Shown here: positions 13,944-56,669 of the stretch, in pieces
Numbering within the stretch: position 1 is the first letter of the stretch
How the letters are laid out: each line of letters starts with the position of its first letter
DNA from: an uncultured Pseudomonadota bacterium
Lineage (GTDB): Bacteria; Babelota; Babeliae; Babelales; RVW-14
Length of the DNA stretch: 64,000 bases
Assembly (NCBI GenBank): GCA_964446935.1
Contig: CAYUQI010000005.1
Span: forward strand, 757 to 64,756
Direction of reading: 5' to 3'
Program-made: the position numbers and the translations under genes
Notes under the pieces: model-generated
What the model was told of the DNA's origin: nothing
Seen by the model: only the letters and a program-made list of their open reading frames with translations
Database searches by the model: none

Positions 13944-14034
13944 AAAAAAGAGGGCACGGTACAGAGAAGTATTACCCCTGCTGCTTCCTTCCGGACCTGA
14001 CAGATTATGCAACACCTCAACTTACCATGCCCAA
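13944..14034 (-). ncRNA. ffs: signal recognition particle RNA (small 4.5S-type)
   Basis: The minus strand reads GGGCATGG...GTCAGGTCCGGAAGGAAGCAGC...CCGTGCCC followed by a T-run. The central block is the near-invariant SRP domain IV motif. The ends pair (GGGCATGG/CCGTGCCC) to close a single long hairpin. It lies directly upstream of dnaX. Boundaries are approximate. Confidence 0.8.
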
Positions 14035-14114
14035 TTTGTAAAGAACTTTGTTATGTCAAAATTTAAATTTACTGGCCTGCCATACGAAGCCACGAGCAAA
14101 GCGAGGGCGAAGTA

Positions 14115-14215: not shown

Positions 14216-15298
14216 TTATTCCTTTTTAGCTGTTGTTTTTTTCTCTGGCTGTTTAGCGGCGGCGGTAGGACGAGCAACTTTTTTTATTTCTTTATGCTCA
14301 GGTTCGGCTGCTTTTTTTGTTTCGACGTTAGCTGCCTTTTTGTGTTCTGGTTCAGCAACTTTTGGCGTTCTTGGTTTTACTTCAATTTTTTCAGTTTTTT
14401 CAACTTTAGTATGTTCAGTTTTTACGTGTTCAATTTTTGGTTTTTCAATCTTTTCATCATGATGTTTTGCTTCATGTGTTTCATGTTTTTCTGGCGCTTT
14501 AGTGGGCTGAACATGCGCTTTGCGTTCCATTTTTGCGTGTAGTTCTTTTGCTTCGGTGACTGCTTTTACCTGAGCCTTACGTGCTTCAAGTTCTGCGGCT
14601 CTTGTTTTTGCCAGAGTAGCTTCGTACGTGGAAACACCTTCTTTAATTTGTTCTGTTAAAAAATCAAAAATGAAGGTAATTGATTTTGGAGAATCGTCAT
14701 TTCCAGGAATAACGAATGTTACTCCTTCTGGATCAGCATTGGTGTCAACTAATGCAACAACGGGAATGCCTAGACGAGATGCTTCTTTAACAGCGGAACG
14801 TTCTTTGGTGACATCGACAATGATGATAGCGGCTGGTGGATAATCCAAGTCGATAATACCTCCAACATTTTTCTCCAAACGAGCAACCTCTTTTTGGATC
14901 ATACTAATTTCTTTTTTCTTATAATGAGTTGTTGATTTTTGAAGTACGTCACGCATATGCAGGAGACGTGTTACAGCTTTCTTTACTTGATCATAGTTAC
15001 TCAATGTTCCACCAACCCATCGGTGAACAACAAATGGCATATGAACAGTATTTGCTGTTTTCTGAATGATAGATTGTGCTGGCTTTTTTGTTCCCACTAG
15101 AAGAAACTTGCCACCAGTGCTGGCAACTTCTTTAAGGAATTTTCCAGCGCGTTCAAGTAAAAAAGCTGTTTTGGAAACATCAATAAGGTGGACGCGGTTT
15201 TTGGCGCCCCAAATGAAGGGTCTCATTTTAGGTGACCAACGTGATGTTTTGTGACCAAAATGAACACCTGCTTCAAGCATTTTCTTTAGATCGATCAT
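14216..15298 (-). CDS. rpsB: 30S ribosomal protein S2 with a long Lys/Glu-rich C-terminal extension
   Basis: 360 aa. The N-terminal part is canonical S2 (LLEAGVHFGHKTSRWSPKMRPFIWG ... IPVVALVDTNADPEGV). The last roughly 130 aa are low-complexity KE-rich with repeated AEPEHK units. Confidence 0.93.
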   Translation of the reverse strand: MIDLKKMLEAGVHFGHKTSRWSPKMRPFIWGAKNRVHLIDVSKTAFLLERAGKFLKEVASTGGKFLLVGTKKPAQSIIQKTANTVHMPFVVHRWVGGTLSNYDQVKKAVTRLLHMRDVLQKSTTHYKKKEISMIQKEVARLEKNVGGIIDLDYPPAAIIIVDVTKERSAVKEASRLGIPVVALVDTNADPEGVTFVIPGNDDSPKSITFIFDFLTEQIKEGVSTYEATLAKTRAAELEARKAQVKAVTEAKELHAKMERKAHVQPTKAPEKHETHEAKHHDEKIEKPKIEHVKTEHTKVEKTEKIEVKPRTPKVAEPEHKKAANVETKKAAEPEHKEIKKVARPTAAAKQPEKKTTAKKE

Positions 15299-15469: not shown

Positions 15470-16858
15470 TTATTTTTGTCCAATAACTTTATTAGACTCA
15501 ATGGTTGTTGTGTATTTCCTGCCAGTTAACATGGCCAAAAACGCCCATGCACAAGCGACGACGATAGAAATACCTGACCCTGCAACTAAGCATATATAAG
15601 CCGAACTAAAGTATGTTGTAAGTGCATTGAAGGTTGAGCCAGTTGTTTTTGAAGCTGTTCTACCAAATGATTCAATCCATGCTTTTGATTTAAATCTGAT
15701 ATCTTTTGTTGTTGGGATAAAAAGAATCTCTCTCAATGGGTGATTGATGCCGTAATTAAGCGCTCGAAGCACAACCATAACGATGAAGATAATTATGAGT
15801 TTAGGATAAAATACGGGCAATAAAGCCATTGCAAGAGTAATAATAGGCATCAGTATAAGGCTTGCTTGAACTCCAAAATGTTTGAGGAGTGTTGATGTGC
15901 CAAAAAGTGCAAAGAAAAAACTCAAAAATTGAAATGCACACGTGTATAAAAGCATAAATGAACTCATTGCGGTAACTTGATTGTGTGCTTCTATGGACAT
16001 GAGAACATGCATTTGATAATCAAAAATAATATTAATTACCTCATAACTGAATACGAGCCCGAAGATACCGAGCACGTAGGGCTGAGCAAGCATTTGTTTA
16101 AGACCTTCAAAAAGAGATGTCCTTTCTTTGGATGCTTCTTGTTTGATATCGGCTGTGTATGCAGCTTCATAGCCTCGCAAATGATCAGCGGGTATCTTTT
16201 TGATGATAATGCTGATGCAGCACATCGCCAAGATTAAAAGAAGTGCTGTGCTGCCTGTCAATAGTGGAATAATGATGTGTCCAGGGTATGCTATTTTTTC
16301 AATTAGAATCCAGCTTATAAATGTTGTTGATATGCCGCCGATGCGAGATCCTGCAACAATAAAGCCATAGGATTTTTTGGCAATGCCTGGGGTTGTTATT
16401 GAATTAATAAAGCTCCAAAAAGTTCCAACAATGAGTGCTTGAAAGAGGTCCATACAAATTTCAAATGCCCATCCAGTAATGCGTGATGAACTTGTTTGAG
16501 TATTAGGAATGCCGTAGACAGGGTGAGCGAACAAAAATGCAAATATGAGTGTGGCGCATGCATAAAAACCAAGAAAGGAGAAAACTACATATTGCCGTTT
16601 AAATGTATCAGTGATTTTCGAATGAAGCATCATAGCTGGAATGGTAAAAAAGACACTTAAAATTTTAGAGATCGGTTCATATTCTCTGCCAACAAACCCA
16701 AGAAATATTGATGTTTTAAATGATCGAAGAATTGAGTATGAGCCTATAATGAAGAAAAAGGTTGCTGCTGATAAAATAAGCTTAAGTCTTTCGCTGCTGT
16801 CTATTTGCAAATGTTTTTCAAGAAAAGAAAAAAATTTCGTTGTTAATCGAGTACTCAT
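15470..16858 (-). CDS. ATP/ADP translocase-type nucleotide transporter (NTT/Tlc family), paralogue 1
   Basis: 462 aa polytopic membrane protein. FWSFINSITTPGIAKKSYGFIVAGSRIGG resembles the Tlc FWxFANxIT...AKRFY block. FIPTTKDIRFKSKAWIESFGRTASK resembles the YIPLDxDxRxKGKA block. Confidence 0.8.
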   Translation of the reverse strand: MSTRLTTKFFSFLEKHLQIDSSERLKLILSAATFFFIIGSYSILRSFKTSIFLGFVGREYEPISKILSVFFTIPAMMLHSKITDTFKRQYVVFSFLGFYACATLIFAFLFAHPVYGIPNTQTSSSRITGWAFEICMDLFQALIVGTFWSFINSITTPGIAKKSYGFIVAGSRIGGISTTFISWILIEKIAYPGHIIIPLLTGSTALLLILAMCCISIIIKKIPADHLRGYEAAYTADIKQEASKERTSLFEGLKQMLAQPYVLGIFGLVFSYEVINIIFDYQMHVLMSIEAHNQVTAMSSFMLLYTCAFQFLSFFFALFGTSTLLKHFGVQASLILMPIITLAMALLPVFYPKLIIIFIVMVVLRALNYGINHPLREILFIPTTKDIRFKSKAWIESFGRTASKTTGSTFNALTTYFSSAYICLVAGSGISIVVACAWAFLAMLTGRKYTTTIESNKVIGQK

Positions 16859-16891: not shown

Positions 16892-18298
16892 TTAAAATTC
16901 TTCTTGTCCGTTAACTTGCCCAATTACCCGTTTGTTATCAATTGCATCTTGAAGTGTTTTGCCGAGAAAATACACAATAATGAGCCACAAAAAGTTAAGA
17001 GTTAGTCCTAACCCAAGGCTTGATATAAGGGCAAAGGCAGGTGTCGCGCCCTTAATGGATACATTGAAAAGTGATCCAAAACTTTTTGCGATACGCGATC
17101 CAAATGCATCGGTCCACGTTTTAGCTTTATATTTTATGTCTTTTGTTGTTGGGATATATAAAACTTCTCTGGTTGGATGATTAAAAGCATAATTAATTGA
17201 GCGCAAAGCAACAAGAACAGCAAAGAATATTCCTGCTGAAGGAATTATATAGGTTATTATAAGGAGGATCATGCAAAGAAGTGGAAAAATAAACAAGGAA
17301 AGTCGAATGCCAATAACACGCAAAAGAGGCGTTGTTCCAAATAAAGAAATACCAAGACCAATTAGGTTATAGAGAAAATAATAAAATGCGTAATATGCGG
17401 TCATAGCGCCGACGGATGGTGTTGTTGCATCTGCGTGAAGTGCTACCCACCAATCAAAAATAACAACCATGATTTCATAAAAGGCAACTAAGGAAAAGAT
17501 GCCAAGAACATAAGGGTTTCGAATCATGATAAAAAGCCCATCAAATGAGCTTTTGAATGAATTAATAAACCCCATTGAAGCTCTTTTTTTATGTTTTTCG
17601 AGTTGGTATGCTGCTTCGTAACCATGCATAAAATCATCAGAGACGTTTGTTATGAGCATATGGATAGAATATGCAGATGCAATTAACATACAGCTTCCTA
17701 TTGCTAAGGAACCTGGTAATAGCATTAATTGTGATTGCACATTTGTGTTTATTAGTATGAGATAAAGCGTTCCTGCTGAAAGGATTCCACCTATTTTTGA
17801 TCCTGCTGCAAAAAAACCATAGTAATTTTTTGCATCCTTAGGATTGTTGATGGAGTCTGCAAATGACCAGAAGACGGTGGCAAAAAAGGCATCAAAGCTT
17901 TCCATGAAAAAATAAAAGGCCCACCCAAGGAGTCGGCCTGAATTTACTTCTGTATTGGCAAGTCCATATACTGGATGCGTAAAGAGAAATGCAAAAATGA
18001 GACCCCCTATAGCATGAAAAAGCATAAAACAATATAAAAGGTGATGTCTTCGAAGCCAGTCAACAAGTTTTGAGTACAAAAGAATTAGCGGAATGATAAA
18101 AAATAAAGAATAAAGTTTTGCATTGGGAACTTGGTAAGCTCCAACCATTTTTGAAAAAATAGAAACTTTGAGTGGACGCCAAATAACAAGGCAACAGGAC
18201 ATGAGAAGAAAGGTTAATGAAAGAAAAAATACCTTGCGCTTAAACTCTGGTTTAATTCCCCACAAATCTTGAAACGTCAGTTTAAGCCGGTCTAGCAT
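16892..18298 (-). CDS. ATP/ADP translocase-type nucleotide transporter (NTT/Tlc family), paralogue 2
   Basis: 468 aa with the same blocks (FWSFADSINNPKDAKNYYGFFAAGSKIGG; LYIPTTKDIKYKAKTWTDAFGSRIAK). It aligns with paralogue 1 along its whole length. Confidence 0.8.
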   Translation of the reverse strand: MLDRLKLTFQDLWGIKPEFKRKVFFLSLTFLLMSCCLVIWRPLKVSIFSKMVGAYQVPNAKLYSLFFIIPLILLYSKLVDWLRRHHLLYCFMLFHAIGGLIFAFLFTHPVYGLANTEVNSGRLLGWAFYFFMESFDAFFATVFWSFADSINNPKDAKNYYGFFAAGSKIGGILSAGTLYLILINTNVQSQLMLLPGSLAIGSCMLIASAYSIHMLITNVSDDFMHGYEAAYQLEKHKKRASMGFINSFKSSFDGLFIMIRNPYVLGIFSLVAFYEIMVVIFDWWVALHADATTPSVGAMTAYYAFYYFLYNLIGLGISLFGTTPLLRVIGIRLSLFIFPLLCMILLIITYIIPSAGIFFAVLVALRSINYAFNHPTREVLYIPTTKDIKYKAKTWTDAFGSRIAKSFGSLFNVSIKGATPAFALISSLGLGLTLNFLWLIIVYFLGKTLQDAIDNKRVIGQVNGQEEF

Positions 18299-30951: not shown

Positions 30952-31818
30952 TTAATGTAAGGTTTTATGTCGCAATTGTTTTTGATATACAAGGATAAGT
31001 GTGATGATTGTTAGTAAAAATAAGAAGTGAACGAATAACGATTGCCGAAGATCGATATCAATCCACCAGGCAAGTGTTGGTACATAGGTTATGCAAGGGA
31101 TTCTTCGTAATACTACTTTGACAAAAACAAGGCCTGCATGAATTCCCATGCCGATATATAACTTGTTGGTAATTGCAAAGACGGTGTTTAATAACATACC
31201 AAGCAAAAACAGACCCAATCCAAGTCGCCAGTCTTGTGTTATGAGCATGAGAGGATTAGTCAAATTGTGGGCAAGGGCAAAAATAAGTGAAGTAATCAGA
31301 GCACTTGTTATGACGGGAAGTTTTTGTGCTAGAAAGGTGAATAAGGTTCCACGGAAAATAACCTCTTCGGTCCATGCAAGGAAAAATGTTGCAACAAAGC
31401 CCCATATAAGACTGCCTGATTTGGAAACAATCCTAGAAAGAGTTTCTTGAATGAATACCGCATTGTCTGTATAACATACAAATGCAAGAATGAGGCTATG
31501 AAGTACGAAAAATGCTGAAAAGAACATAAAAAATTGTTTGATCCAACCGACTGTTCCTAAGAACGAAATATTTGTTTGCCAGAATGTGGTACGGTAGGCT
31601 CGTGAGGCTGTTGTGACTAAAAGCATGATATGAAGAAGTATCATGATGGTAAAAACAACCTTCCCAACGCCACGGTTTGCCAACAATGAAAATGTTGGAT
31701 CGAACCAGCAAGCAATTGGTTGTAGTAAGCAGAAAGAGATCAAAAGAGAAAGGGCCGATAAAACTATCGGCCCAATTGCACGGAAAAACCGCGCTATTTT
31801 TACAAGAAGTTTTTGCAT
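30952..31818 (-). CDS. CPBP (CAAX/Abi) family intramembrane protease
   Basis: 288 aa polytopic protein with EEVIFRGTLF (motif 1) and ALAHNLTN (motif 3 His). Confidence 0.78.
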   Translation of the reverse strand: MQKLLVKIARFFRAIGPIVLSALSLLISFCLLQPIACWFDPTFSLLANRGVGKVVFTIMILLHIMLLVTTASRAYRTTFWQTNISFLGTVGWIKQFFMFFSAFFVLHSLILAFVCYTDNAVFIQETLSRIVSKSGSLIWGFVATFFLAWTEEVIFRGTLFTFLAQKLPVITSALITSLIFALAHNLTNPLMLITQDWRLGLGLFLLGMLLNTVFAITNKLYIGMGIHAGLVFVKVVLRRIPCITYVPTLAWWIDIDLRQSLFVHFLFLLTIITLILVYQKQLRHKTLH

Positions 31819-32096
31819 TAGGCTGAGCGAAGTTGCTCTTTGAGATGCTTGCCTGCCTTGAAGCGTGGGACGCTGATAGCAGGAAGGTGGATACGTTGCT
31901 TGGTTGATGGGTTAATACCAAGACGTGCAGGACGCTTGGAAAGCCAATATGAACCAAAGCCGGTCAAGGAAACCTTGCCACCTTTTTTGAGTGTTCTTTC
32001 AACAATACGTGTGAAGGAACTTAACACTTTAGCAATATCCTTTTTGCTAAAATTTGTTTCTTCACTGAGTGCGGCAATCAATTCACTCTTATTCAT
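31818..32096 (-). CDS. hup: DNA-binding protein HU
   Basis: 92 aa: MNKSELIAALSEETNFSKKDIAKVLSSFTRIVERTLKKGGKVSLTGFGSY...RPARLGINPSTKQRIHLPA..VPRFKAGKHLKE. This is the canonical HU/IHF fold signature. Confidence 0.9.
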   Translation of the reverse strand: MNKSELIAALSEETNFSKKDIAKVLSSFTRIVERTLKKGGKVSLTGFGSYWLSKRPARLGINPSTKQRIHLPAISVPRFKAGKHLKEQLRSA

Positions 32097-32383
32097 GTGA
32101 ATCTCCTAATATATAGTTACACCCTAATTTCCACTGTTTCAATTGTGAAATCTAAATGCTGTTTGTTCGTTTGTCAAGAGAATTAACACAAGAATGTTGT
32201 TGGTGCGCGCACATTTTGTATTGTTATTTTTGGCGAAGAAAAAATATTACGATTTCTTGTGGCAAAAGTCCATTTTCTTTTCTGGATGAAATGGCTTTGA
32301 TCGATGTAAAAAATTTTGTTGTAGAAAGGGAGTGTGATAGACTTAACATTTTATTTAGACCTTAGACCTTGGAGGATATTGGG

Positions 32384-33217
32384 ATGTTTGTCGATACGCA
32401 TTGTCATTTGGATTTGATCGCGCGACTTGATGATGAGAAAAAACCGCTGAGTGATGCAGATTATGTGATTATTGATCGTGCTTTGCATGAAGCTGTACAA
32501 GCTGATGTTGGTGCCTTTATTAATATTGGAACATCGATTGCAGGAAGCATTCAATCGGTTGAACTTGCACAACGATATGCTAATGTGTATGCATCCATTG
32601 GTATTCATCCTTGTGATTGCGGTACCGGTTCTACAAACGAGCTCAAGCAACGCATGCAATCATTACAGCTATTATTGAAGGACAAGGAATCAAATAAGAT
32701 TGTTGCAATCGGTGAGATTGGTCTTGATTTTTTTCATAAGCCATACGACAAACAAGCTCAAATTGATTTTTTTAAAGCGCAGATAGAATTAGCTTTGCGT
32801 TATGATCTTCCTATTGTAATCCATGTTCGTGATGCAGCCGATGAGCTATTGCGTGTGGTTGAAGAATACGTAAAAGATAAACTTCGTGGCGTTTTCCATT
32901 GTTTTCTACAAAAGAAAGATTTTGCCGATATTATTCTGGACTGGGGTTTTTATGTTGGCCTTGATGCGCCTATCACCTACCCTAAAAATGAATCCTTGAG
33001 AAATGTCTTTAAAGACATACCACTTGAACGGATTCTGTTGGAAACTGATGCTCCATTTTTACCACTGCAACAGTATCGTGGGCAACAAAATCGTCCGGTT
33101 TATATTCCGCTGATTGCAGAGGCACTTGCAAATATAAAGGGCATTGATGTTGCTACTGTTGAAACAGTTACAACGGCCAATGCCCAGAAATTATTTGTAT
33201 TTATGCAGCAAGTGTAA
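32384..33217 (+). CDS. tatD: TatD-family metal-dependent hydrolase/DNase
   Basis: GGAGG lies 8 nt upstream of ATG 32384. N-terminal MFVDTHCHLD, then AIGEIGLDF, IHVRDA, VFHCF and ETDAPFL motifs. Confidence 0.88.
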   Translation: MFVDTHCHLDLIARLDDEKKPLSDADYVIIDRALHEAVQADVGAFINIGTSIAGSIQSVELAQRYANVYASIGIHPCDCGTGSTNELKQRMQSLQLLLKDKESNKIVAIGEIGLDFFHKPYDKQAQIDFFKAQIELALRYDLPIVIHVRDAADELLRVVEEYVKDKLRGVFHCFLQKKDFADIILDWGFYVGLDAPITYPKNESLRNVFKDIPLERILLETDAPFLPLQQYRGQQNRPVYIPLIAEALANIKGIDVATVETVTTANAQKLFVFMQQV

Positions 33218-34568
33218 TGTTGCCAATATATTCTTTTTTGAAGTTCGATGTATAAATTGATCCTGTTTGCACTATCATTTTGGAAAGCTCTATGGCTGGC
33301 AATGCGATTGGTGTTTGTGTTGTTGTTACCCCAAGCGTGTGAGCCAGTATAAGATTGGTGATGAATTTAACAACATCTGTTTGTTGTTCTAACGAAGGAT
33401 TAATTTCTATTTTCTGTTGAGTGGTATCCAATTGGCTTGGGCAGGTTGTATTGTTTAACAAGTTCCACATAGTATCGAGTGCTTGTTTATATTCTTCCTG
33501 ATTTTTGTTTTGAACCAATGTTACTTGTGTGAGTCTATGTGCATCGATAGCGTTTGCTATTGATAACGCTGCATCAAACATACCAATAATACGAAGTGCG
33601 TGTCCTACTATTTTGAATGCCTCGAGTGTTGTTGGAAGTGCTGTTGGCAATGGTGGTAGGTTGAGCGTTTGGGGTAATAATTCAACGATGGTCTTTAGAT
33701 CTGTGTAGAACGAATTCATGGTGCCTTCTAGTGTTTGATATTGTTTGTATTGTGCCCAATTTTTCCCCATCATGTGATTGATAAGTGATGAAGAAAAGGT
33801 AAGTGCCGTACCTGCTAAAGCGAGTGAGGGTAGGATAGTAAGGCCGAGCCAACTAGCTCCCCACCCAAGCAGAGCTTGCGTTGGATAGTATCCCCAACTG
33901 TTGCCGAGGTGATGAGAGATGAATTGTGATACTGGATTCGAGATCAATGAGGATAAAAAGCTATTGGTTGCGTTATAGACGCATGTGTTAGCAAGCATCG
34001 ATGAGGTCAGAGTAAGTCCTGGCTCTATGAGACGTTTAATCATGGACGGTTGTTTTAACGTGGCATACATGATCCATTGATGGATAACGTTATTAAAAAA
34101 TACTTCTTGAGCACGGGTGTCAAATTGTTTCAGCATGGTTGTTACTTTTTCCCGTGATGGAGTATGTAATGCAGCGTCGATTGCTGTACGTTTTTCTTCT
34201 AAATCGCTGGGCTGTGACATCCATTCAGTTAAGGTAAGAAGTCCTACAATAGTTGATGGTTGAATCGTACTTAAAACCTGAAGAAGAGGTTGCGTGATAA
34301 CATCAAATGAAATGGCGGTGCTGTCGTTGCTTGGTGACAGGTGACTGTCTTTGATAAGTTGTTCCATATGCTCAGCTGCAATGCGTTCTTGGCGCTCTGA
34401 TGCTATCTTCTCTTGCATTTGGCTAAAGTCTTTATCATCGATATGAGCGAATTCATCATTTTTAAGCGCCGAAAGATAGGCGTCAAAAAGGGTGTTCGCA
34501 TTGCATACGGATGTAAGCGATATGCTTATAGTTACGCATATTGGTGCAATGTTTCGTAGGAACTTCAT
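33201..34568 (-). CDS. hypothetical secreted/membrane-associated protein (ORFan)
   Basis: 455 aa with an N-terminal signal-like segment MKFLRNIAPICVTISISLTSVCNA. A central hydrophobic stretch is present (ALLGWGASWLGLTILPSLALAGTALTF). No recognisable family. Confidence 0.5.
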   Translation of the reverse strand: MKFLRNIAPICVTISISLTSVCNANTLFDAYLSALKNDEFAHIDDKDFSQMQEKIASERQERIAAEHMEQLIKDSHLSPSNDSTAISFDVITQPLLQVLSTIQPSTIVGLLTLTEWMSQPSDLEEKRTAIDAALHTPSREKVTTMLKQFDTRAQEVFFNNVIHQWIMYATLKQPSMIKRLIEPGLTLTSSMLANTCVYNATNSFLSSLISNPVSQFISHHLGNSWGYYPTQALLGWGASWLGLTILPSLALAGTALTFSSSLINHMMGKNWAQYKQYQTLEGTMNSFYTDLKTIVELLPQTLNLPPLPTALPTTLEAFKIVGHALRIIGMFDAALSIANAIDAHRLTQVTLVQNKNQEEYKQALDTMWNLLNNTTCPSQLDTTQQKIEINPSLEQQTDVVKFITNLILAHTLGVTTTQTPIALPAIELSKMIVQTGSIYTSNFKKEYIGNITLAA

Positions 34569-34594
34569 TCTAGATAACCTCTATTTATATATAT

Positions 34595-35752
34595 TTACGA
34601 TACCTGTGCACCACTTGCACCTATTACGACAGGAACTGCAAGGGCAAGTCCTATGCCATACAAAATAGTTTTAAGCGTTTTAAATTGTGGGCTTCTTCCG
34701 CCTCGTTGTGATTTATTTAATTGATAAATTTTATACGTTGCGAAAATAGAAAACAGTCCGGCAAATGTTGTAGCAATAAGTGTGCCGTTAGGATAAGCCG
34801 CATGCCACGATTTCCATGTAAGTATTGGATGGAACATGTGATTGTATAATGATGACCATCCAGAACAAATGGTGTTTTTGATTGATTGCCACATTCCGTT
34901 TGGTTGTAATTGAGCGTGCATCTGGCTAATAAGACCCTTATCAAAGGATACTTGTGGGAACAGTGTGTTGAATTCTTCATGGGTTAATGTTTTACCACTT
35001 GCAAGATTGATAGCTTCTTTGAGTTCGGTTTCACTTTTCTGTACGAGGTCGATAAGGCTATTGGCTATGGTTGTTTCCATTGTATTTTGTGGGCCGCCAT
35101 GGTTGATGATAGTAGACAGTACGGTCCAATTGTTTTTTACAAAGTAATAGGTGCCAGTTACATTAGTCTTATATTGTTCTAGCGCTTTGCTAATAAGATC
35201 TTTGGATACAATTGTTCCTTGAATTGTTTCTATCTTTTTAACTAAAGCATCTATTGCAGAATTTCCTTGAACAATTGAAGGATTGAGCAGTGAACCTAAT
35301 CGAGAAAAAATCGGTTGTTTGTCTAATGTGTTAATTTTGGGATCTACATACCAGTAGTAAAAGGTACAAAAATGAAAGAATCTTTTGTACCAGACTGGAT
35401 TTCCTGTGCCGATAAGTTTATTACCATTTTCGATAATGGCACTGGAGACGTTATTAAGTAGCTCTTGCTCTGTGGATGCGCGCTCATAAAGCAAATTTTT
35501 GATGTCTTTTGCATGTGCTGATATTGCGTTACCTATTGTTCCATTCTTGATATATCCATCCATGCGGCGATATGCATCGTTATAAATTTTCTCGATAACA
35601 GTCCCTGTGGTACTATTACCCGATGTTGTAGAACCAGAGATTTTATTTGATAGTGATTCCAGCAAACATGGGCGAGCCATACTTGTTGCCCACGTTAATG
35701 ACAAGCTGCATGCAATCGCAATAACTATTTTTTTTAACAATGTAAACTTCAT
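34595..35752 (-). CDS. hypothetical secreted protein with C-terminal two-helix hydrophobic hairpin (ORFan)
   Basis: Start moved to ATG 35752 (MKFTLLKKIVIAIACSLSLTWA). The C-terminus has two hydrophobic helices (TLIATTFAGLFSIFATYKIY and ILYGIGLALAVPVVIGA) separated by a short basic loop. Confidence 0.5.
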   Translation of the reverse strand: MKFTLLKKIVIAIACSLSLTWATSMARPCLLESLSNKISGSTTSGNSTTGTVIEKIYNDAYRRMDGYIKNGTIGNAISAHAKDIKNLLYERASTEQELLNNVSSAIIENGNKLIGTGNPVWYKRFFHFCTFYYWYVDPKINTLDKQPIFSRLGSLLNPSIVQGNSAIDALVKKIETIQGTIVSKDLISKALEQYKTNVTGTYYFVKNNWTVLSTIINHGGPQNTMETTIANSLIDLVQKSETELKEAINLASGKTLTHEEFNTLFPQVSFDKGLISQMHAQLQPNGMWQSIKNTICSGWSSLYNHMFHPILTWKSWHAAYPNGTLIATTFAGLFSIFATYKIYQLNKSQRGGRSPQFKTLKTILYGIGLALAVPVVIGASGAQVS

Positions 35753-35951
35753 GATAACCTCCAATAAATATAAATAATAAAATGTCTCCACCTACCAAGA
35801 GCCAGGTAGGGATCTAAATAACCTCCACAATCCCCGAGAATGCTATAATTTTTTTAAGAAACGTTTTCTCGAAATGTTCTACGTTTAAGAATTTTTTTGA
35901 TTATGCCTTAGATTACGCGTATCTGAGCATTGCGTCAAAAGGGTGCGTTTA

Positions 35952-36425
35952 TTATCTCTTTGAAAAGAAACGTTTAAAACCGACGTCTAAAAGGCGATGA
36001 TTGAGTGCGCCACTAATGAATAAAATACAAATAGAAACGGGTATTGTGCGGATAAGGTGAGGATGCGTATGCATATAGGCTAGGGTTATAACTGTTGGCG
36101 TAAGGACAATAAACCACAGGGAATGAGTGAGGGTGCGATGGGGAATAACCACGAGAATAAGACACAAAAGACTTAATCCTAAAAAAATGCTTTTGTGATA
36201 AAAAAAAGAGAGGGGAACCATGAAGGCCATTGCCATATAGAGCAAGCGCTGCCCCTTGCTTTGGATATCAATATCAGGGAATAATGAACCAAGAAGTGTG
36301 GCTGTAAGTAATATGCAATGATGCATGATACTTACTGAATGAACAATGCCCATCCATGTCAAAAGCTTAATCATCAAAATATAGGTAACAACCCCACCAA
36401 CCAAATGTCCTTTATATGAAGGCAT
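35952..36425 (-). CDS. membrane-bound metal-dependent hydrolase, YdjM/DUF457-like
   Basis: 157 aa: MPSYKGHLVGG..., LGSLFPDIDIQS, PHRTLTHSL. The His/Asp pattern and 4-5 TM helices resemble the YdjM family. Confidence 0.65.
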   Translation of the reverse strand: MPSYKGHLVGGVVTYILMIKLLTWMGIVHSVSIMHHCILLTATLLGSLFPDIDIQSKGQRLLYMAMAFMVPLSFFYHKSIFLGLSLLCLILVVIPHRTLTHSLWFIVLTPTVITLAYMHTHPHLIRTIPVSICILFISGALNHRLLDVGFKRFFSKR

Positions 36426-36447: not shown

Positions 36448-37707
36448 TTATAACAATTTACTTATTTTAGTACCAGGATAGTAAAAACTTAAAATATCAC
36501 GAATATTCCGTCCTTGGTGTACTTGCTCATTGCTACCCCATTGACACAGCCCTCGTTGATGTCCATACCCCTTTCCTGCTATTACTATGCGATCTCGAAT
36601 TTTTTTAACTGAAAAAGATAAGCTTTTAATACGGCTTGACATTGTCCATCGCATATCATTACCAGCGATGGTGATTGTTCGATTTGATTGATCAGTAATA
36701 GCTACCCGTAAAACAAGGCCAGCTTTATCAACCTTAACGACCTTGATATCTTTAATAGCTTTTACTGATTTTAGTTTGCGCGCAAGATGTTGGGATGCCT
36801 TGAGTTTGCCAAGTAATGCTTTTTCTGGAAGATCTATTTTCCATCGAAAACTAGGGCTTTTTTGACAATACAAACAACGTTCGTGACGACATAAATATGG
36901 TTTGCTTGTTTCTCTGTTATACATCAATGAAGGAACTGATCCTCCACAGCAAGAATCAAACATTGTCAAAGCAATGTGCCCTTTATAGGTAATGATCATT
37001 CCTGCGGTTTCATCAATTGCTTGGCGAATACGATTGTAATTGTGTGTGCCATTATACACCTGGTGCATAGTTGTGTTTTTTATATCATAAAAACACGGAT
37101 GCAGCTTGTTTTGGCGTGCTTGTTGCATTAAAAAAACTGCATATGTTCGTGAAACAATAGCTTGTATTTTCTGTGAGTTGAGTGGCCATGATGGAATGCT
37201 TTCATAGCGGACGACTGAATAAACATAGTCTTCAAGAGGCAATTTGTTAATGACAAGAACCTTTTTATTGGTTTTATCCAGTTGAATGATAAGGCTTCCT
37301 TGATACGAATAACTGCCTATTGTTATTTTGTTGTTTGTATCGCAGATCTCAATATTATTGTACTTTATACGACGATACTGATGATCATGACAACGTAGAT
37401 AAAGGTTGTCATTTTTACATAAAAGATGTAATTCGCCTTTTTGATAGAGGGCTGTATTTCCAGATTCTGCCGGACTTTCAAGAATAAATCCATTAGCAGC
37501 TTTTATAATGAATTTTTTTTCGGTTGCCATATCGTGCTCATTAAGCAGAACACGGATTTTTTTTACTTTGGGAATGCGAATAGATGATTCTGTCGATGTT
37601 ATTGTTGATTCCGAAGGAGTTGGTACTATGGCAGCTACCATTGATGGATGTTCTGTGCACCACAATGATATGCTTAAAAAGAAAAAAATATACTTACTTG
37701 TATTCAC
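36448..37707 (-). CDS. SpoIID/LytB-domain protein (peptidoglycan lytic transglycosylase / amidase enhancer)
   Basis: 419 aa with a signal peptide. Motifs: LEDYVYSVVRYESIPSWPLNSQKIQAIVSRTYAV, FDSCCGGSVPS and GYGHQRGLCQWGS, all typical of SpoIID. Confidence 0.8.
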   Translation of the reverse strand: MNTSKYIFFFLSISLWCTEHPSMVAAIVPTPSESTITSTESSIRIPKVKKIRVLLNEHDMATEKKFIIKAANGFILESPAESGNTALYQKGELHLLCKNDNLYLRCHDHQYRRIKYNNIEICDTNNKITIGSYSYQGSLIIQLDKTNKKVLVINKLPLEDYVYSVVRYESIPSWPLNSQKIQAIVSRTYAVFLMQQARQNKLHPCFYDIKNTTMHQVYNGTHNYNRIRQAIDETAGMIITYKGHIALTMFDSCCGGSVPSLMYNRETSKPYLCRHERCLYCQKSPSFRWKIDLPEKALLGKLKASQHLARKLKSVKAIKDIKVVKVDKAGLVLRVAITDQSNRTITIAGNDMRWTMSSRIKSLSFSVKKIRDRIVIAGKGYGHQRGLCQWGSNEQVHQGRNIRDILSFYYPGTKISKLL

Positions 37708-44578: not shown

Positions 44579-45139
44579 ATGGAACCACAACGGCAGCAAA
44601 GCCAAAAAGAGACAAGTCTGGCATGGTTTAAGCTTGCTGATCTTATAGCGCGAGGAGAACGAGAAAAAGCGCTCAATGTCTTTCGACTATTATCGCATTC
44701 ATTGCCTGATCGAGCCTATGTTTTGCAGCTAGAAGGCGATATCTTATGGCATCTTGATGATGACAAAAATTCGTATGAGAAATATAAACAAGCGGCTTTT
44801 TTGTATCAGAAGGAAAAACGTTGGATTGATGCCATTGCTATTTATGAGCATTTGTTGACGCAGAATCCTGATTCACCAGATATTGTCGGATCTTTGCTTG
44901 TATTCTATGCCGTGATAGATTGGCAGGAAAAGTTCCAAGAACGTTTTGGTCGTCTGATGAAACTTTTTAAAAAGGGTGATGCTGGAGAGTTACAGGTAGA
45001 AAAGATCATCCAAGATGTTATCGATATTGTTGGTATTACTGGTAATAAGTGTGAAAAAAGGTGGCTTTTTGACTGGTTGTCAGAAGTTGTTGATGACCTT
45101 CCTGAAGCAATTGCAACGCGGTTGCGGGGGCTTTTGTAA
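44579..45139 (+). CDS. hypothetical protein, helical-repeat (TPR-like?)
   Basis: 186 aa, all-helical in appearance (KALNVFRLLSHSLPDRAYVLQLEGDILWHL...KYKQAAFLYQKEKRWIDAIAIYEHLL). No signal peptide and no family recognised. Confidence 0.45.
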   Translation: MEPQRQQSQKETSLAWFKLADLIARGEREKALNVFRLLSHSLPDRAYVLQLEGDILWHLDDDKNSYEKYKQAAFLYQKEKRWIDAIAIYEHLLTQNPDSPDIVGSLLVFYAVIDWQEKFQERFGRLMKLFKKGDAGELQVEKIIQDVIDIVGITGNKCEKRWLFDWLSEVVDDLPEAIATRLRGLL

Positions 45140-45474: not shown

Positions 45475-46098
45475 ATGGTTACGAATAAAAAAACACTTGT
45501 TCTTTCTTTGGCAATTGCTTGTGCTGGTGTTATGTCATGTGCTCAAGCACAACAACCGCAACTACCGACGCCGCTTCAAACAGCACAGCAAAAAATAGCT
45601 GCTGCTAATGGACAACCTGTCCAGTTGTTAGCTACTGAAGCTGCTGCCTTAGCAGCCCATGCTGCCCAAGAAGCACAAAATCAACCAACGAAAATAGGTA
45701 AGGTTTTTATTGGGCTTGCCAATGGTGTTGATAAATACATTTTTAAAAATGCTGTGAAACTTGTTACTAAGACAGGAGAAGGCATTGTGTATGTTTGTCG
45801 TGATATTAAAGCAAATCCTGGCACGGTTGTTGCCGGTGTTTCAACAGCAATAGCATTAACTTTTTGGTTCCTTCCTTCAATTACCAATCTAGTTGGTGTG
45901 GCAACCCCTACCGTGGCAGGCTATCAGACTCAATGCATATCTAATGATCGCATGGTTGCTCTTGTTCAAAATGGAGCCGTGGTTGCACTTACGCCAGTGT
46001 GTTCGACGGCATGGTGGGTAATTAGAAAAATATGGCAAAAAATGACAGCCCCTGAGGCTCCGGTTGCTCAACAACCAGTCGCTCAAAACAATCAATAA
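45475..46098 (+). CDS. hypothetical lipoprotein/membrane protein (ORFan operon gene 1)
   Basis: 207 aa. The signal peptide has a lipobox-like VMSC. An Ala/Gln-rich segment follows, then two hydrophobic segments (VVAGVSTAIALTFWFLPSI; VVALTPVCSTAWWVI). Confidence 0.5.
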   Translation: MVTNKKTLVLSLAIACAGVMSCAQAQQPQLPTPLQTAQQKIAAANGQPVQLLATEAAALAAHAAQEAQNQPTKIGKVFIGLANGVDKYIFKNAVKLVTKTGEGIVYVCRDIKANPGTVVAGVSTAIALTFWFLPSITNLVGVATPTVAGYQTQCISNDRMVALVQNGAVVALTPVCSTAWWVIRKIWQKMTAPEAPVAQQPVAQNNQ

Positions 46099-46164
46099 AC
46101 AATCTCCATTATTATAGAGATATTGTTTTTTGTATGCCTATCGACAGGGAAATGTGAGGTTATC

Positions 46165-47367
46165 GTGAATGTGTTAAAAAGATACAGCGTATTGGTTTGT
46201 ATTGCTAGTTGTTTGCTGTTTGTTAATGGTGCCATCGCTATGGATGATGCACCAGATGCCCAAATGGATAATGCAACAGCTGGTAGACGCGTACGCAAAT
46301 ATGGTAAGCGTAAGCGTGATGAATCAAAAGCCGGTAAAATAACAAAGCAATTCAAACAAAACGACGGAAGTTCTCAAAGGCATACATTTGAACAACCCAT
46401 TCCGGCAACGCCTATTGTTCAACAACAGGAACAACTACCTAGTTGGCAAAGTACTCTTAATCCATTCAATTATGCTCCATTAAAATATATTAAGCGATTT
46501 ATTAAAGGTAAAAGAAAATTGGTACCAGAGCCTAATGCATCTACAACTACAACAAATGGAGCCAATGTATTATCGAGTACAACACATTCATCTTATGTAT
46601 CTGCTCCACTGCCACCGCCTCTTCACGTAGAAACGCCAACAGCTTCTTCAAGTTCATCATCTTCTGCACAAACGATTACAGTGAGTGGTAATGACTACAA
46701 TGTTGATACGTATTTTGAGAAGAAAGACGATGGATGGCATTACAAGCAATATCTAAATGGTGCCAAGGCAGGAAGCCTTGTTCGTAAAGATGCGATTTTG
46801 AGACAGCTGCAGACATTGGGACAATTGAAACAACAGCTGGTACAAACGCTACCCCCGGCTGCTATTTCTGTCGATGAAGTCAAAGCATTGTCTGGCAGGA
46901 TTGATCAAATGGGAGCAACTATTCAGCAATTGCAAATGCAACAAAATCAACAACAATATGAACAATTTAGATCACGCATAAGTTTCTTGGCTCTTAATCT
47001 TGCGAGTATCGGTATGAGTTTATTTTTGGGCGGATGGACAACTTCAGTTATATGTAACATTATTGCGTTTGCATGTGATTACGTGCTTGGTTGTCAATGG
47101 ATTATGTCGCATTTTGGCGAAAAAACTCAAAAATTATTTCTTCGTATCAGAACAATTGTTTCTACTATTTCTGCCGGATTTGCTGTGTATAACTTTGTAA
47201 ATATGCACATAGAACTTAAGCAAACGATAACAGAGCTTAAACAAGAGTTGGCAAGAATAATGCCCGCTAGCGTTAACCAGGATACGCTTTCCTGGTGGCA
47301 AAAACCGTTGTATTCTGCTGTACGATTATTTGAGACAATTGGTTGCTCAGTAGCAAATTGTCATTAA
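46165..47367 (+). CDS. hypothetical secreted/membrane protein with basic KRKR patch, poly-Ser and Q-rich coiled coil (ORFan operon gene 2)
   Basis: Start probably GTG 46165 (GAGG upstream; the ORF-track start is 46123). Signal peptide LKRYSVLVCIASCLLFVNGAIA. Other elements: GRRVRKYGKRKRDE, SSSSSS, QQLQMQQNQQQYEQF, and three C-terminal hydrophobic helices. Confidence 0.5.
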   Translation: MNVLKRYSVLVCIASCLLFVNGAIAMDDAPDAQMDNATAGRRVRKYGKRKRDESKAGKITKQFKQNDGSSQRHTFEQPIPATPIVQQQEQLPSWQSTLNPFNYAPLKYIKRFIKGKRKLVPEPNASTTTTNGANVLSSTTHSSYVSAPLPPPLHVETPTASSSSSSSAQTITVSGNDYNVDTYFEKKDDGWHYKQYLNGAKAGSLVRKDAILRQLQTLGQLKQQLVQTLPPAAISVDEVKALSGRIDQMGATIQQLQMQQNQQQYEQFRSRISFLALNLASIGMSLFLGGWTTSVICNIIAFACDYVLGCQWIMSHFGEKTQKLFLRIRTIVSTISAGFAVYNFVNMHIELKQTITELKQELARIMPASVNQDTLSWWQKPLYSAVRLFETIGCSVANCH

Positions 47368-47377
47368 TGGAGGCTCT

Positions 47378-48274
47378 ATGGTTATGAGTAATAAAATAAA
47401 AATAGTTTTGAGTACTATTGTTTTTTTCATGGTGAGTGGGATTCCTTTTTTGCGTGGGCAGCAAGATAAGAGAATATTTGATGAGGGCTCTCCTGAAAAA
47501 CAGTTACTCATAAAGACTGATGGCACTACATCTTTTTATAATCGTGTACATGCTTGTTTTAATAATACGTCGCAATTGCCTTCGAATGTGTTGGATACGT
47601 CTATTAAGGTGATTCTGAATGATGCTTTATGGCAAACACTTGCAGCTAATTGTACCAATAAACGTATCTCTGCTTTCAAAGTAAATTTACCCCCACTGCC
47701 AACCGGATTTGTTGATCAACCATCACAAAATAGCAAGATACCGGTAACAGGAGACTACAAAAAGATAGTGCTTTATTATATTACCGCTGCCTATATGTTG
47801 GTTGCCAAAAATCTTTCGCATACTCATCAAACATGGAAGACGTTTTTCTCCCAGACTCAAAATTGTACAGCCTATGTAAATGTATTACGTGGGGCGGTGC
47901 AGGCAGTTGCATATTGGCAGAATGTTTTTGACGATGGATACTGGGTGCAGGTTGCTCAGAGTCTTGCAAATGTTTGTAGCCAGGCTAAACCACTCCCTGC
48001 TGATGCAATTATTGATGGGGACTTTGATACTTTGTATGTTCACGAACTTAACAAAACGGTCAACCAATTGAAGTTTTGGGCTAAGGTTAGTGTGGCAACA
48101 TTATTTATAGTTCATGGACTGACTGCATTAGCTGAACATTGTGTTCCTCATTATCATAGTAATTTATCATCGAATCTTTCGGCGGCATTTGTTGCCGATG
48201 TTACAGTAGCGTTAATGATTGCTGGTACTGCAAAAACAGTAAGTTTTATTACAAGAAAATTGTTTGGTCGTTAA
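47378..48274 (+). CDS. hypothetical secreted protein with C-terminal two-helix hydrophobic hairpin (ORFan operon gene 3)
   Basis: 298 aa. GGAGG lies just upstream, followed by a signal peptide. The C-terminus has VSVATLFIVHGLTALA and AAFVADVTVALMIAGTA separated by about 20 aa. Confidence 0.5.
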   Translation: MVMSNKIKIVLSTIVFFMVSGIPFLRGQQDKRIFDEGSPEKQLLIKTDGTTSFYNRVHACFNNTSQLPSNVLDTSIKVILNDALWQTLAANCTNKRISAFKVNLPPLPTGFVDQPSQNSKIPVTGDYKKIVLYYITAAYMLVAKNLSHTHQTWKTFFSQTQNCTAYVNVLRGAVQAVAYWQNVFDDGYWVQVAQSLANVCSQAKPLPADAIIDGDFDTLYVHELNKTVNQLKFWAKVSVATLFIVHGLTALAEHCVPHYHSNLSSNLSAAFVADVTVALMIAGTAKTVSFITRKLFGR

Positions 48275-48313
48275 TTAGTTAAAACCCATATTTTTTTATT
48301 AGGGAGGTTTCTC

Positions 48314-49189
48314 ATGAAAAAACCAATATTTCGTAGGATTTTGTTTTCGTTATTTGTCGTTTGTTGTTCATTGGAATTAGGAGCAATGCAAGCGCCTGCT
48401 ATGCCTGAAGTTGATGATACAGCTATTCAAGCTCCAACTTCTTTAGATGGTGTTAAAAACACCGTTCTTGGGCACGTTGTAAATCTTTCGTTTGATAAGG
48501 TTTTTGATAGTACAGACGCCTCAAAATTGTCTACTGATACAACGAAGGTTTTGGACGCTGTTAATGCATCAAAAACAGATGTTAGTGAAGATGTTTACAA
48601 TGCTTATATTGAATTGTTTTGGTCAAAAGTAGGATTGGCACTTGTTGTACAATTTGTTAAAGCATTTACGTTTGATGATGTTGCTACGTGTTCAAAGCAG
48701 GCAATTGAAAACATTGTTACAACAAAGTTTACGCAGCTTAAGGGGCGCCTTGATAATCAATTAGTAACCAGTGCTGCTATTAATAATGATAAAATGAATA
48801 TTACTGTTCAAGGTATTACCTATCAGTTGGAGATTTGCGATACTATTGGGAAAATAGCTGCTGTATTGACGACTGCTACGACCTTTGTTAAAGCGGTTAA
48901 AACTGCTCTTACACAATGGGGCTCTGCCTTGATTGATGCTAAAGTTATTAAGTTTAATTCTCAGACATATACGCTCAAAGAATATACTCAAAGTATTCAA
49001 GAGCTTTGCAAAAAGCTTGTTCAGGAAGATTATATTAAATTGGTCAGAAGCGTTGCACAAAGATTTGCAGGCAAGGGACGAGATTTTGCTCGTGATCAAC
49101 ATACTCAGCAAGTAAATAGTCATATTTCAACACAGTTGCAAAATAATTTGTATCAAGCAATGGATGATGCTCGAGATACTGATCTGTAA
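48314..49189 (+). CDS. hypothetical secreted protein (ORFan operon gene 4)
   Basis: 291 aa with a GGGAGG RBS and an MKKPIFRRILFSLFVVCCSLELGA signal peptide. The rest looks helical. No family recognised. Confidence 0.5.
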   Translation: MKKPIFRRILFSLFVVCCSLELGAMQAPAMPEVDDTAIQAPTSLDGVKNTVLGHVVNLSFDKVFDSTDASKLSTDTTKVLDAVNASKTDVSEDVYNAYIELFWSKVGLALVVQFVKAFTFDDVATCSKQAIENIVTTKFTQLKGRLDNQLVTSAAINNDKMNITVQGITYQLEICDTIGKIAAVLTTATTFVKAVKTALTQWGSALIDAKVIKFNSQTYTLKEYTQSIQELCKKLVQEDYIKLVRSVAQRFAGKGRDFARDQHTQQVNSHISTQLQNNLYQAMDDARDTDL

Positions 49190-49257
49190 TTTTAAATAGT
49201 TATAAGGAATAGGGGGAAGCTTTTTTTAGCTTCCTCCTATCTACATAAAGAAGAACA

Positions 49258-49977
49258 ATGAAGTTACGTTGGATTTTAAATTTTTTTTCTCAGAAATATG
49301 GCCTTATAGCTGGAATTGTGCTTGTAATAGCGAGCCTCTTTGGTTTTGTCTATTACATAACATACGATAGTTCTAATCAACATTGTTTGCCTGCGTTCAC
49401 TTTGCAAAATACATCAGATACTATTCAAAAAAATATTCCTTCTTGTGCGTGTAGTGAGCATGTGAAGCAAGAAAAATTGGCTACCCCTAAGCCATCACGT
49501 ATCGACAAAAAATCTCAAAGCAATGATTCAGTAAATCAGGATGCTCAATCAAACGCCGAGAAGTCCGAGGTGCATGATAAAGAGCAGAATGATTCTGAAA
49601 TACCGGAACCGACTGTTGATGATGAATTGCTTGATCAACTGGCTGCTGAGCAATTAATGCGTGATTTAGCGCAGGACAATGAAAAGAACGATCATCAACA
49701 ATCAGAAAAATCCAATGATAAACCGGTTGTCAATTCCAAGCAATCGAAAGAATCACAACAATCATCAGATAAGCATAAAAACGCATCAGGCGATGATTCA
49801 TCTGTCGGATATGGTGGTAACCAATCAGATGCACAGTTACGTAATGAATTGGATCAAAGCACAGCATTTGCAAAACAACGCTTTATAAGCGAACAAGCAC
49901 GTCAAGCGCTTGAGGAAAGCAAGGCTGAAGTTACGAGAAAAATTAAAGAGCAGATTATCGGTTCGCTTGGAGGATAA
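49258..49977 (+). CDS. hypothetical single-pass membrane protein with long acidic/Ser/Gln-rich disordered region (ORFan operon gene 5)
   Basis: 239 aa with an N-terminal TM segment YGLIAGIVLVIASLFGFVYYI. About 150 aa of low-complexity D/E/S/Q/N/K sequence follows. Confidence 0.5.
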   Translation: MKLRWILNFFSQKYGLIAGIVLVIASLFGFVYYITYDSSNQHCLPAFTLQNTSDTIQKNIPSCACSEHVKQEKLATPKPSRIDKKSQSNDSVNQDAQSNAEKSEVHDKEQNDSEIPEPTVDDELLDQLAAEQLMRDLAQDNEKNDHQQSEKSNDKPVVNSKQSKESQQSSDKHKNASGDDSSVGYGGNQSDAQLRNELDQSTAFAKQRFISEQARQALEESKAEVTRKIKEQIIGSLGG

Positions 49978-55947: not shown

Positions 55948-55962
55948 GCCTTATCCCTTTGG

Positions 55963-56646: not shown

Positions 56647-56669
56647 TATACCAGTCCTATCTGCATGTA

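Follow-up and report, generated by a model that had tools for sequence, protein, structure and literature searches.

What do two adjacent genes encode when both products begin like exported proteins and neither matches a described family, and on which side of which membrane would these products act? This question is raised by genes A and B, which lie on the minus strand at positions 33201-35752 of a 64,000-nucleotide (nt) stretch of bacterial DNA (contig CAYUQI010000005.1). By "the window" we mean this whole stretch. The original prediction regarded the pair as exported, membrane-inserting ORFans and likened the end of B to the Inc proteins of chlamydiae. As judged from sequence, the pair consists of a pseudo-ATPase descendant of MutS (A) and a clade-specific hairpin-anchored membrane protein (B). 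The earlier reading is therefore partly supported: it was right in that the pair is lineage-specific and probably exported, and wrong in the Inc analogy. The window belongs to a bacterium of the Dependentiae (TM6, Babeliales-like), and its nearest SpoIID relatives (59-61% identity) as well as the named ones are Candidatus Babeliales/Dependentiae (TM6). The two genes and their signals are as follows.

33201..34568, minus strand: gene A, 455 amino acids (aa); apparent degenerate MutS-family paralogue with a domain III core, a truncated P-loop-less start of domain V and a signal-peptide-like leader (open reading frame (ORF), ribosome-binding site, family of ten, MutS-like homology)
34595..35752, minus strand: gene B, 385 aa from ATG; signal peptide, predicted-helical ectodomain of ~300 aa, C-terminal two-helix hairpin (ORF, ribosome-binding site, positional orthologues)
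34578-34581, minus strand: ribosome-binding site of A, GAGG, 9 nt before ATG
35758-35762, minus strand: ribosome-binding site of B, GGAGG, 5 nt before ATG
35753..35951, minus strand: intergenic region 5' of B, 199 nt

Both genes lie exactly where they had been placed (455 and about 385 aa); they are on the minus strand, and both have ribosome-binding sites and orthologues. The ribosome-binding motifs and the gap of 26 nt between the genes indicate that A and B are real and probably co-translated. Their length of 385-455 codons at 39% G+C, together with positional orthologues in eight other genomes, shows that they are not chance ORFs. An alternative upstream start of B (GTG at 35791) would give a protein of 398 aa. 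A and B make up a two-gene unit of their own, which occupies a variable slot bounded by ydjM and the convergent tatD. The 199-nt region upstream of B probably carries a promoter of this unit; the spacer upstream of B is 200-350 nt long in seven related loci that hold ydjM. Scans for promoters and terminators near the pair gave matches at no more than shuffle expectation, and Rfam and tRNA scans gave none in the A-B region.

Direct searches of Pfam, NCBIfam and PADLOC found no family above threshold for A, B or any of their orthologues. To this extent the claim that the proteins have no recognisable domain is correct, but it does not extend to remote homology, where A is consistently related to MutS. 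The alignment of the A family (ten members) contains a series of MutS-like motifs: T..G...L..W[LM]..P followed by Q..I..hh...pEL, then iG.lDac.aLA, and then a strand followed by FL.NLILaQTLG.I. Throughout the family G109 does not vary, and D332, L117, P120, F157 and G413 are invariant or nearly so. Three regions of A are important for the comparison.

34119..34304, minus strand: MutS domain III N-terminal motif of A, aa 89-150; T..G...L..W[LM]..P, then Q..I..hh...pEL; aligned to E. coli MutS ~285-346
33315..33614, minus strand: end of domain III and first strand-helix of domain V, aa 319-418; IGMFDAALSIANA resembles ALAELDVLVNLAE of MutS, and FITNLILAHTLGV resembles RQTALIALMAYIGSYVPA of MutS
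33378..33401, minus strand: lost Walker A site, NPSLEQQT, aa 390-397; intact relatives have GPNxGGKS

Aligned with the profile of MutS-like proteins by hhalign, the region 89-150 of A scored 35.2 (probability 83%, P 8e-6), the column-shuffle null being 9.6 +/- 1.6. The N-terminal motif of domain III (T.T.mG.R.L..wl..Pl with R..I..l) is present in A according to both hhalign and HMMER. Two sub-regions within aa 319-418 scored 22.3 (null 7.7 +/- 1.6) and 18.8 (null 9.2 +/- 1.7), with probabilities of just 4-51%. None of 80 column shuffles reached any of these three scores (null standard deviation ~1.7). The helix that closes domain III (a.ELD.l.slA) and the strand-helix of domain V are colinear with those of the MutS-like proteins, IGMFDAALSIANA corresponding to LGELDAYMSIARL and FITNLILAHTLGV to LVLNIIFAQSFGI. 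The full-length comparison of the A family with the MutS-like proteins gave P 1.3e-3, and the near-global alignment is colinear. When the profile included E. coli MutS 261-800, A 89-150 was aligned with MutS ~285-346 (P 4e-4) and A 319-418 with ~540-645 (P 0.016), again colinearly.

The same relationship appears in HMMER searches. Hidden Markov models (HMMs) built from six or ten members of the A family only were run against the ~3,100 ORFs of all fetched loci. Three MutS-like proteins, from the loci L016, L019 and L090, were three of the four best non-members for the ten-member model (L090, E 7e-5), and the L016 protein was matched by the six-member model with E 6.8e-4. The match to L090 runs colinearly as a single alignment through the domain III motif, the LD..S.A helix LGELDAYMSIARL and the P-loop strand-helix up to IIITGPNAGGKSTIMKALVLNIIFAQSFGIAP.

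The catalytic part of the ATPase is missing from A. A Walker A motif GxxGK[ST] occurs in none of the ten family members, and the alignments show unrelated residues in its place. The A protein ends 41 aa after 'TLGV', whereas in the intact relatives ~70 aa separate the corresponding point from Walker B; in all ten members of the family the C-terminus follows the post-P-loop helix by ~40 aa and precedes Walker B. Walker B (hhhhDE), the ABC signature and the His-loop are missing, since the C-terminus precedes them. Mismatch domain I, connector domain II and clamp domain IV are not found in A, which has only the leader and ~60 aa before domain III. These profile alignments indicate that A goes back to a paralogue in the MutS family, and that it lost the P-loop and ends short of Walker B. 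With both the P-loop and Walker B gone, A is predicted to be unable to hydrolyse ATP.

The intact proteins related to A are encoded in other, deeper-branching Dependentiae.

L016:4569-6488; L019:4833-6572; L090:1315-3474: intact MutS-like proteins with MutS_III and MutS_V and an N-terminal hydrophobic leader

In L016 the order is YdjM, a 659-aa MutS_III+MutS_V protein (MutS_V above the Pfam threshold) and the convergent TatD, which is a slot identical to that of A. Thus the pair is not ORFan in origin as far as A is concerned, since A is a degenerate MutS paralogue occupying the slot of an intact MutS_III+V gene. L019 and the metagenomic locus L090 have a MutS_III+V protein in the same neighbourhood (next to spoIID/ydjM/ftsW). 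The L090 protein matches E. coli MutS at 516-771 (E 4e-17) and at 267-331. All three proteins keep GPNxGGKS, the DE of Walker B and the TH[FY] loop, and presumably are active ATPases. They are below the NCBIfam cut-offs for MutS1, MutS2 and KamC. Shine-Dalgarno motifs precede their leader-containing start codons. No B-like partner adjoins any of the three genes. A metagenome scan with the alignment of the MutS-like proteins gave one locus, and PADLOC, which gives no match for A or B, gives only generic P-loop matches for the L090 protein. No paper on MutS paralogues that bear a leader, are anchored in the membrane or are exported came up in a literature search.

How widespread the pair is and how it evolves were examined in related loci. 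A scan of genome contigs with an alignment of SpoIID proteins gave matches, and a scan with a single SpoIID protein gave none. One of the related loci, L004, is contig LDIV01000005 of the TM6 genome of Yeoh et al. (PMC4776705). The gene order in the window is RNase H, SpoIID, YdjM, B, A, convergent TatD, HU, Rce1-like, FtsW/RodA, SbcC, with the following neighbours bounding the pair.

35952-36425, minus strand: ydjM, upstream neighbour of B (Pfam; synteny across Dependentiae loci)
36448-37707, minus strand: spoIID, upstream neighbour (Pfam; synteny across Dependentiae loci)
32369..33217, plus strand: tatD, convergent; overlaps the 3' end of A by 17 nt and forms the downstream edge of the variable slot

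The backbone of CT398-like coiled coil, RNase H, SpoIID, YdjM, the slot, TatD, HU and Rce1-like protein is kept in ~25 Dependentiae loci, and the contents of the slot vary: it is empty in L009, L012 and L089 and holds other cargo in L008, L010, L014 and L015. In L004, L005, L086, L087, L088, L091 and L092 it always contains two same-strand genes without a Pfam match, a B-like gene (297-714 aa) and then, after 26-93 nt, an A-like gene (415-677 aa). The first five of these loci make up the clade nearest to the window (SpoIID 54-61% identical). BLASTP ties window B to L004, L088 and L091, and L088 and L091 to L092; the B orthologues of L005, L086 and L087 were assigned by position and architecture. 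The B-then-A pair is present in at least eight related genomes. As a separate observation, the ydjM-tatD interval is a variable hotspot across Dependentiae (L006, L008, L010, L014, L015, L021-L025), with contents ranging from none through one to three unrelated signal-peptide proteins or a protein with five transmembrane (TM) helices to an ATPase_2/AAA + DUF234 protein (L008:11897-13417).

BLASTP identity between the window and its relatives is 22-32% for A and 24-26% for B. In bits per residue A and B score 0.08-0.18, as compared with 0.7-2.0 for all twelve flanking genes, and the pair diverges ~10 times faster than its neighbours (~24% identity versus 55-97%). An exhaustive phmmer search with A against 1.84e9 representatives found six related proteins, all of the A kind, and a word-indexed search of 5.8e9 proteins with A and B found nothing besides A and B themselves. 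The lineage restriction claimed for the pair is borne out by the phmmer result. Given the kept pair order, the low scores per residue relative to the flanks and the six phmmer relatives, the A-B pair is a conserved, extremely fast-evolving, clade-restricted cassette. Nearby, the HU-like protein (31818-32096, minus strand) shows 93-97% identity between genomes that share 45-70% in their other proteins, and so is under unusually strong constraint.

Rapid divergence together with the loss of catalytic motifs could also mean that the pair, and especially A, is a functionless relic drifting to loss, with B an equally dispensable ORF. The loss of both Walker motifs, the truncation, the very low identity, the variable lengths (415-677 aa for A and 297-714 aa for B) and the empty slot in three loci are in line with this explanation. 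However, long ORFs with ribosome-binding sites are intact in at least nine genomes, whose SpoIID identity to the window goes down to 49%, and the near-invariant positions of A, the conserved motifs, the gene order and the short B-A spacers have persisted. Reduced genomes, moreover, usually delete dead genes. We therefore give decay a very low probability and return to the reading of A and B as a maintained pair.

The probable location of A depends on two hydrophobic regions. Signal peptides and TM helices were called throughout by hydropathy and charge rules computed in this analysis, with hydropathy on the Kyte-Doolittle (KD) scale.

34497..34568, minus strand: leader of A, aa 1-24, MKFLRNIAPICVTISISLTSVCNA-cut-N; K/R, hydrophobic run, small-residue site
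33780..33875, minus strand: hydrophobic stretch of A, aa 232-263, rich in G/S/A/L; KD19 peak 1.46-1.56; at the position of the MutS lever/clamp

The export signals ascribed to both proteins are indeed seen: in each, K/R come before a hydrophobic run that leads to a small-residue site. In the hydropathy and charge reading the cleavage-like sites are VCNA-cut-N (A) and TWA-cut-T (B). All ten members of the A family have such a leader followed by a conserved Y-x-S-x-L motif. The central hydrophobic stretch of ~30 aa that had been attributed to A exists, at aa 232-263, but it is weak (KD19 1.46) and is not conserved among orthologues: P0125 and L088_A show it weakly or not at all, and in L086_A it is multiplied. 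Its placement at the lever/clamp region of MutS is deduced from the colinear alignments.

The leader of A predicts export, whereas the core and the ATPase domain of MutS usually lie packed together in a single compartment. A might be a MutS-core protein tethered at the cytoplasmic face of the membrane. Its uncleaved leader would then serve as one anchor, and the patch, replacing the DNA clamp, as another, either in-plane or a hairpin. A would thus act within the bacterium, for example by tethering a partner or the nucleoid to the membrane, and only the ectodomain of B would be periplasmic. The halves of MutS domain III pack together with domain V and should share a compartment, and the intact relatives need ATP. 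The hydrophobic region of the L090 protein resembles a two-helix hairpin whose connecting loop is acidic and which is followed by basic residues, K/R precede the central patch in five members of the A family, and several neighbours are DNA-related (RNase H, TatD, HU and SbcC). On the other hand, the canonical signal-peptide N-termini (K/R, short h-region, small-residue site) predict an N-in/C-out orientation and not N-out, and the DNA clamp and mismatch domains are absent from A. Periplasmic ATP is also conceivable in an energy parasite that imports host ATP over the inner membrane, which might reconcile an exported A with the ATP need of its relatives; an uncleaved leader would be the other way out. 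In our estimate, a purely cytoplasmic-face A is quite improbable, and export or membrane association of A through its leader is the reading that we follow below.

The features of B are as follows.

35687..35752, minus strand: signal peptide of B, aa 1-22, MKFTLLKKIVIAIACSLSLTWA-cut-TS (hydropathy and charge)
34724..34783, minus strand: hairpin helix 1, aa 324-343, after a conserved W-K-S-x4-Y-P motif; KD peak 1.35-1.53
34679..34723, minus strand: hairpin loop, aa 344-358, QLNKSQRGGRSPQFK; net positive
34610..34678, minus strand: hairpin helix 2, aa 359-381, ending 4 residues before the C-terminus; KD19 peak 1.98

The two hydrophobic segments at the end of B, separated by the basic YQLNKSQRGGRSPQFKTLK, are as had been described, and a terminal hydrophobic helix and a hairpin with K/R-rich loop ends are found in all eight B orthologues. 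These eight positional orthologues have a common layout: the leader is followed by a predicted-helical domain and a W-K-S-x4-Y-P-like motif, after which come helix 1 with AYK[IV]Y at its end, the K/R-flanked loop and the C-terminal helix 2. The loop is basic in all of them and varies in length from 13 to ~85 aa, being rich in Q/P/N in L004 and L005. Two peculiarities of single orthologues may be recorded here: in L004:12044-13309 and L005:11984-12889 the loop between the hairpin helices is a Q/N/A/P-rich stretch of 45 to ~85 aa, and in L086:10082-11653 a Cys/Pro-rich (CPxP-like) segment precedes the hairpin.

In the B orthologues of L088, L091 and L092 the leader ends in a lipobox (ALSSC / ALCSC), which argues that the N-terminal domain of B really crosses the inner membrane. 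The lipobox [LVI][ASTVI][GAS]C was not found in window B (IAIAC, with K residues too close) or in A (no fitting Cys), as judged by the PROSITE PS51257 rule. According to the positive-inside rule, a basic loop stays in the bacterial cytoplasm. A strongly basic loop of very variable length, in a hairpin at the extreme C-terminus, is what one would expect if the loop of B remained there. Most simply, then, B would be an inner-membrane protein with a periplasmic domain. Comparison of the B profile with PDB sequences gave nothing meaningful.

Several other candidate relationships were rejected. B is not recognisable as a truncated duplicate of A or of a MutS-like protein (hhalign P 0.16 and 0.22), and no relationship was found of A and B to each other or to other ORFs of the window as paralogues. 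A YLATT match of B (E 0.16) covers only the hairpin and was treated as chance. For A, a CTD6/ABC-3C match (E 0.012) was obtained with only one of the ten members and was likewise treated as chance, and matches of the A profile to the coronavirus spike HR1 among PDB sequences (E 0.09-0.3) were judged to reflect helical-repeat composition and not homology.

Taken together, A and B may be a fast-evolving, non-enzymatic envelope pair of a MutS-derived pseudo-ATPase and a hairpin-anchored membrane protein, a reading that we hold with moderate confidence. The N-terminal domain of B would be exported to the periplasm, and the hairpin would hold B in the bacterial inner membrane, the basic loop lying on the cytoplasmic side. 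A would be exported or associated with the membrane via its leader and the weak central patch. As a pseudo-ATPase keeping only the helical MutS core, A might act with B as a scaffold or adaptor at the bacterial envelope. The fast divergence could come from exposure at the host interface or from relaxed constraint after the loss of catalysis.

Several points weigh against this proposal. Pfam MutS_III/MutS_V and NCBIfam MutS1/MutS2 give no match at E<=10 for any of the ten A members, and the hhalign probabilities for A versus MutS are individually modest (18-83%); since no curated MutS model detects the A members, we file A as a degenerate derivative of a MutS paralogue and not as a functional member. 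Single-sequence AlphaFold2 models of A and B are unusable (predicted local distance difference test, pLDDT, 35-36), so that the MutS fold of A is deduced from sequence profiles. The central patch of A is sub-threshold and non-conserved and has K/R mostly on its N side. An exported ATPase, which the intact relatives would be, is unorthodox. A functional link between A and B is suggested only by their conserved adjacency. Finally, fast evolution and signal peptides suit secreted host-directed proteins equally well.

According to this last possibility, A and B would be secreted past the bacterium and inserted in a host-derived membrane (vacuole, mitochondrion or endoplasmic reticulum (ER)), as Inc-like effectors or effectors bearing transmembrane domains (TMDs). 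The phylum consists of intracellular parasites. In Chromulinavorax destructans, 44% of coding sequences have signal peptides, which are enriched in proteins without known function and viewed as candidate effectors, and outer-membrane vesicles have been observed (PMC6561590); vesicle delivery to the host would fit the fast evolution of the pair. No part of the block evolves faster than the pair, which is also clade-restricted, and the window B hairpin has the bilobed shape. The hydrophobic segments of A and B are moderately hydrophobic (crude Hessa sums +3 to +4), and moderate hydrophobicity is a trait of translocated TMD effectors.

Against delivery to the host stand the secretion systems and the proteins themselves. 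Comparative genomics of TM6 describes Sec, a type II system and parts of a type IV pilus (PMC4776705, PMC6561590), and no type III secretion system is reported among the listed core secretion genes (PMC4776705). B has a Sec or lipoprotein leader, and its terminal helix of KD ~2.0 with the K/R-flanked loop is expected to stop transfer and enter the inner membrane. The length of the B loop is unconstrained (13 to ~85 aa), A is derived from a MutS paralogue, and the hydrophobic patch of A is missing from two orthologues. Neither A nor B resembles any Inc or known effector family in the Pfam, NCBIfam and PDB searches, and nothing specific supports their delivery to a host membrane. Signal-like N-termini occur on ~15 of the 51 large ORFs of the window by a crude rule; together with the share in C. 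destructans, this makes a signal-peptide protein without known function ordinary in these bacteria. We consider insertion of A and B in a host membrane unlikely and keep to their placement at the bacterial envelope.

The pair had also been tied to a cluster at 45475-49977, and no homology between A or B and this cluster was found. The cluster (plus strand) consists of five consecutive same-strand ORFs (207-414 aa) with signal-like N-termini and no Pfam match. They have no BLASTP relative in any fetched locus, although related genomes keep the adjacent gene 44579-45139 at 62-66% identity, and the cluster looks like a second fast-evolving or variable island.

Some other genes of the window deserve mention. 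The ORFs 15470-16858 and 16892-18298 (minus strand) are tandem paralogues with 36% identity and 8-9 predicted TM helices, the first without a Pfam match at E<=0.01; they are possibly divergent transporters of an energy parasite. At 5361-7004 and 6902-8581 (minus strand) there are tandem paralogues of type I phosphodiesterase/nucleotide pyrophosphatase with 42% identity. The listed ORFs overlap by ~100 nt, and therefore the true start of 5361-7004 is probably later. An ORF similar to ribosomal protein S2 (14216-15298, minus strand) has 360 aa, ~100 aa above the usual length, and is located away from tsf-pyrH-frr (55363-57551); the signal recognition particle (SRP) RNA (13945-14036) and tRNA-Ser are just downstream of it.

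The analysis traces an apparent ORFan of a candidate-phylum parasite to a known superfamily by positional orthology and by profiles made from orthologues that escape ordinary searches. The dark gene A thereby becomes a testable case of pseudo-enzyme evolution, and the locus exposes a small group of leader-bearing MutS_III+V ATPases conserved beside spoIID in Dependentiae. If these ATPases are indeed exported, a DNA-repair ATPase fold would have been recruited to the envelope or the host interface of an energy parasite. A more speculative proposal, in our opinion an unlikely one, is that Dependentiae hold an undescribed signal-peptide branch of MutS acting outside the cytoplasm, in the periplasm or the host, where a membrane-active segment has replaced the DNA clamp; one Babeliales clade would have lost the ATPase and paired the remnant with B as a rapidly diversifying envelope or host-interface complex. 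A practical consequence is the removal of an unsupported annotation as Inc-like effector.

Compared with known systems, window B is similar to chlamydial Inc proteins in having two hydrophobic helices of ~20 aa with a 15-aa loop, ~58 aa in total, in an intracellular bacterium. The region aa 324-381 of window B fits the shape of the Inc bilobed domain (40-60+ aa), but with orthologue loops of 13 to ~85 aa the tight unit is not conserved. Inc proteins have no Sec signal peptides and are exported by a type III system. Unlike them, B and all its orthologues have a Sec-type leader, with a lipobox in three, and the hairpin of B is at the extreme C-terminus after a domain of ~300 aa, with a loop that is basic and of variable length. 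No similarity of B to an Inc family is seen in Pfam, NCBIfam or PDB, and the organism belongs to Dependentiae and is not chlamydial. Only the shape of a single hairpin speaks for the Inc analogy, which fails on the leader, the position of the hairpin, the loop, the lineage and similarity, and an annotation as Inc-like effector is not supported.

Gene A is closest to the intact Dependentiae MutS_III+V proteins, which are alike in the kind of leader, domain order and neighbourhood and are among its top non-family matches (L090 best), and which, unlike A, keep the catalytic motifs. Like the MutS paralogues without mismatch domains (MutS2 and the KamC-type reactivase ATPase; MutS_III PF05192 + MutS_V PF00488), A has no domains I and II, and it aligns colinearly with MutS-like proteins at the domain III start, the domain III-ending helix and the first strand-helix of domain V. 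It differs from them in having no Walker A, Walker B, signature or His-loop and in stopping ~40 aa after the post-P-loop helix; it adds a signal-peptide-like leader and has a G/S/A-rich hydrophobic patch in place of the lever/clamp. Finally, A resembles pseudo-enzymes and degenerate P-loop NTPase relics kept as scaffolds, since it likewise is a putative motif-less descendant of an ATPase with an intact ORF in many genomes. This last likeness is one of functional analogy and not of family, with a partner or scaffold role of A being putative.

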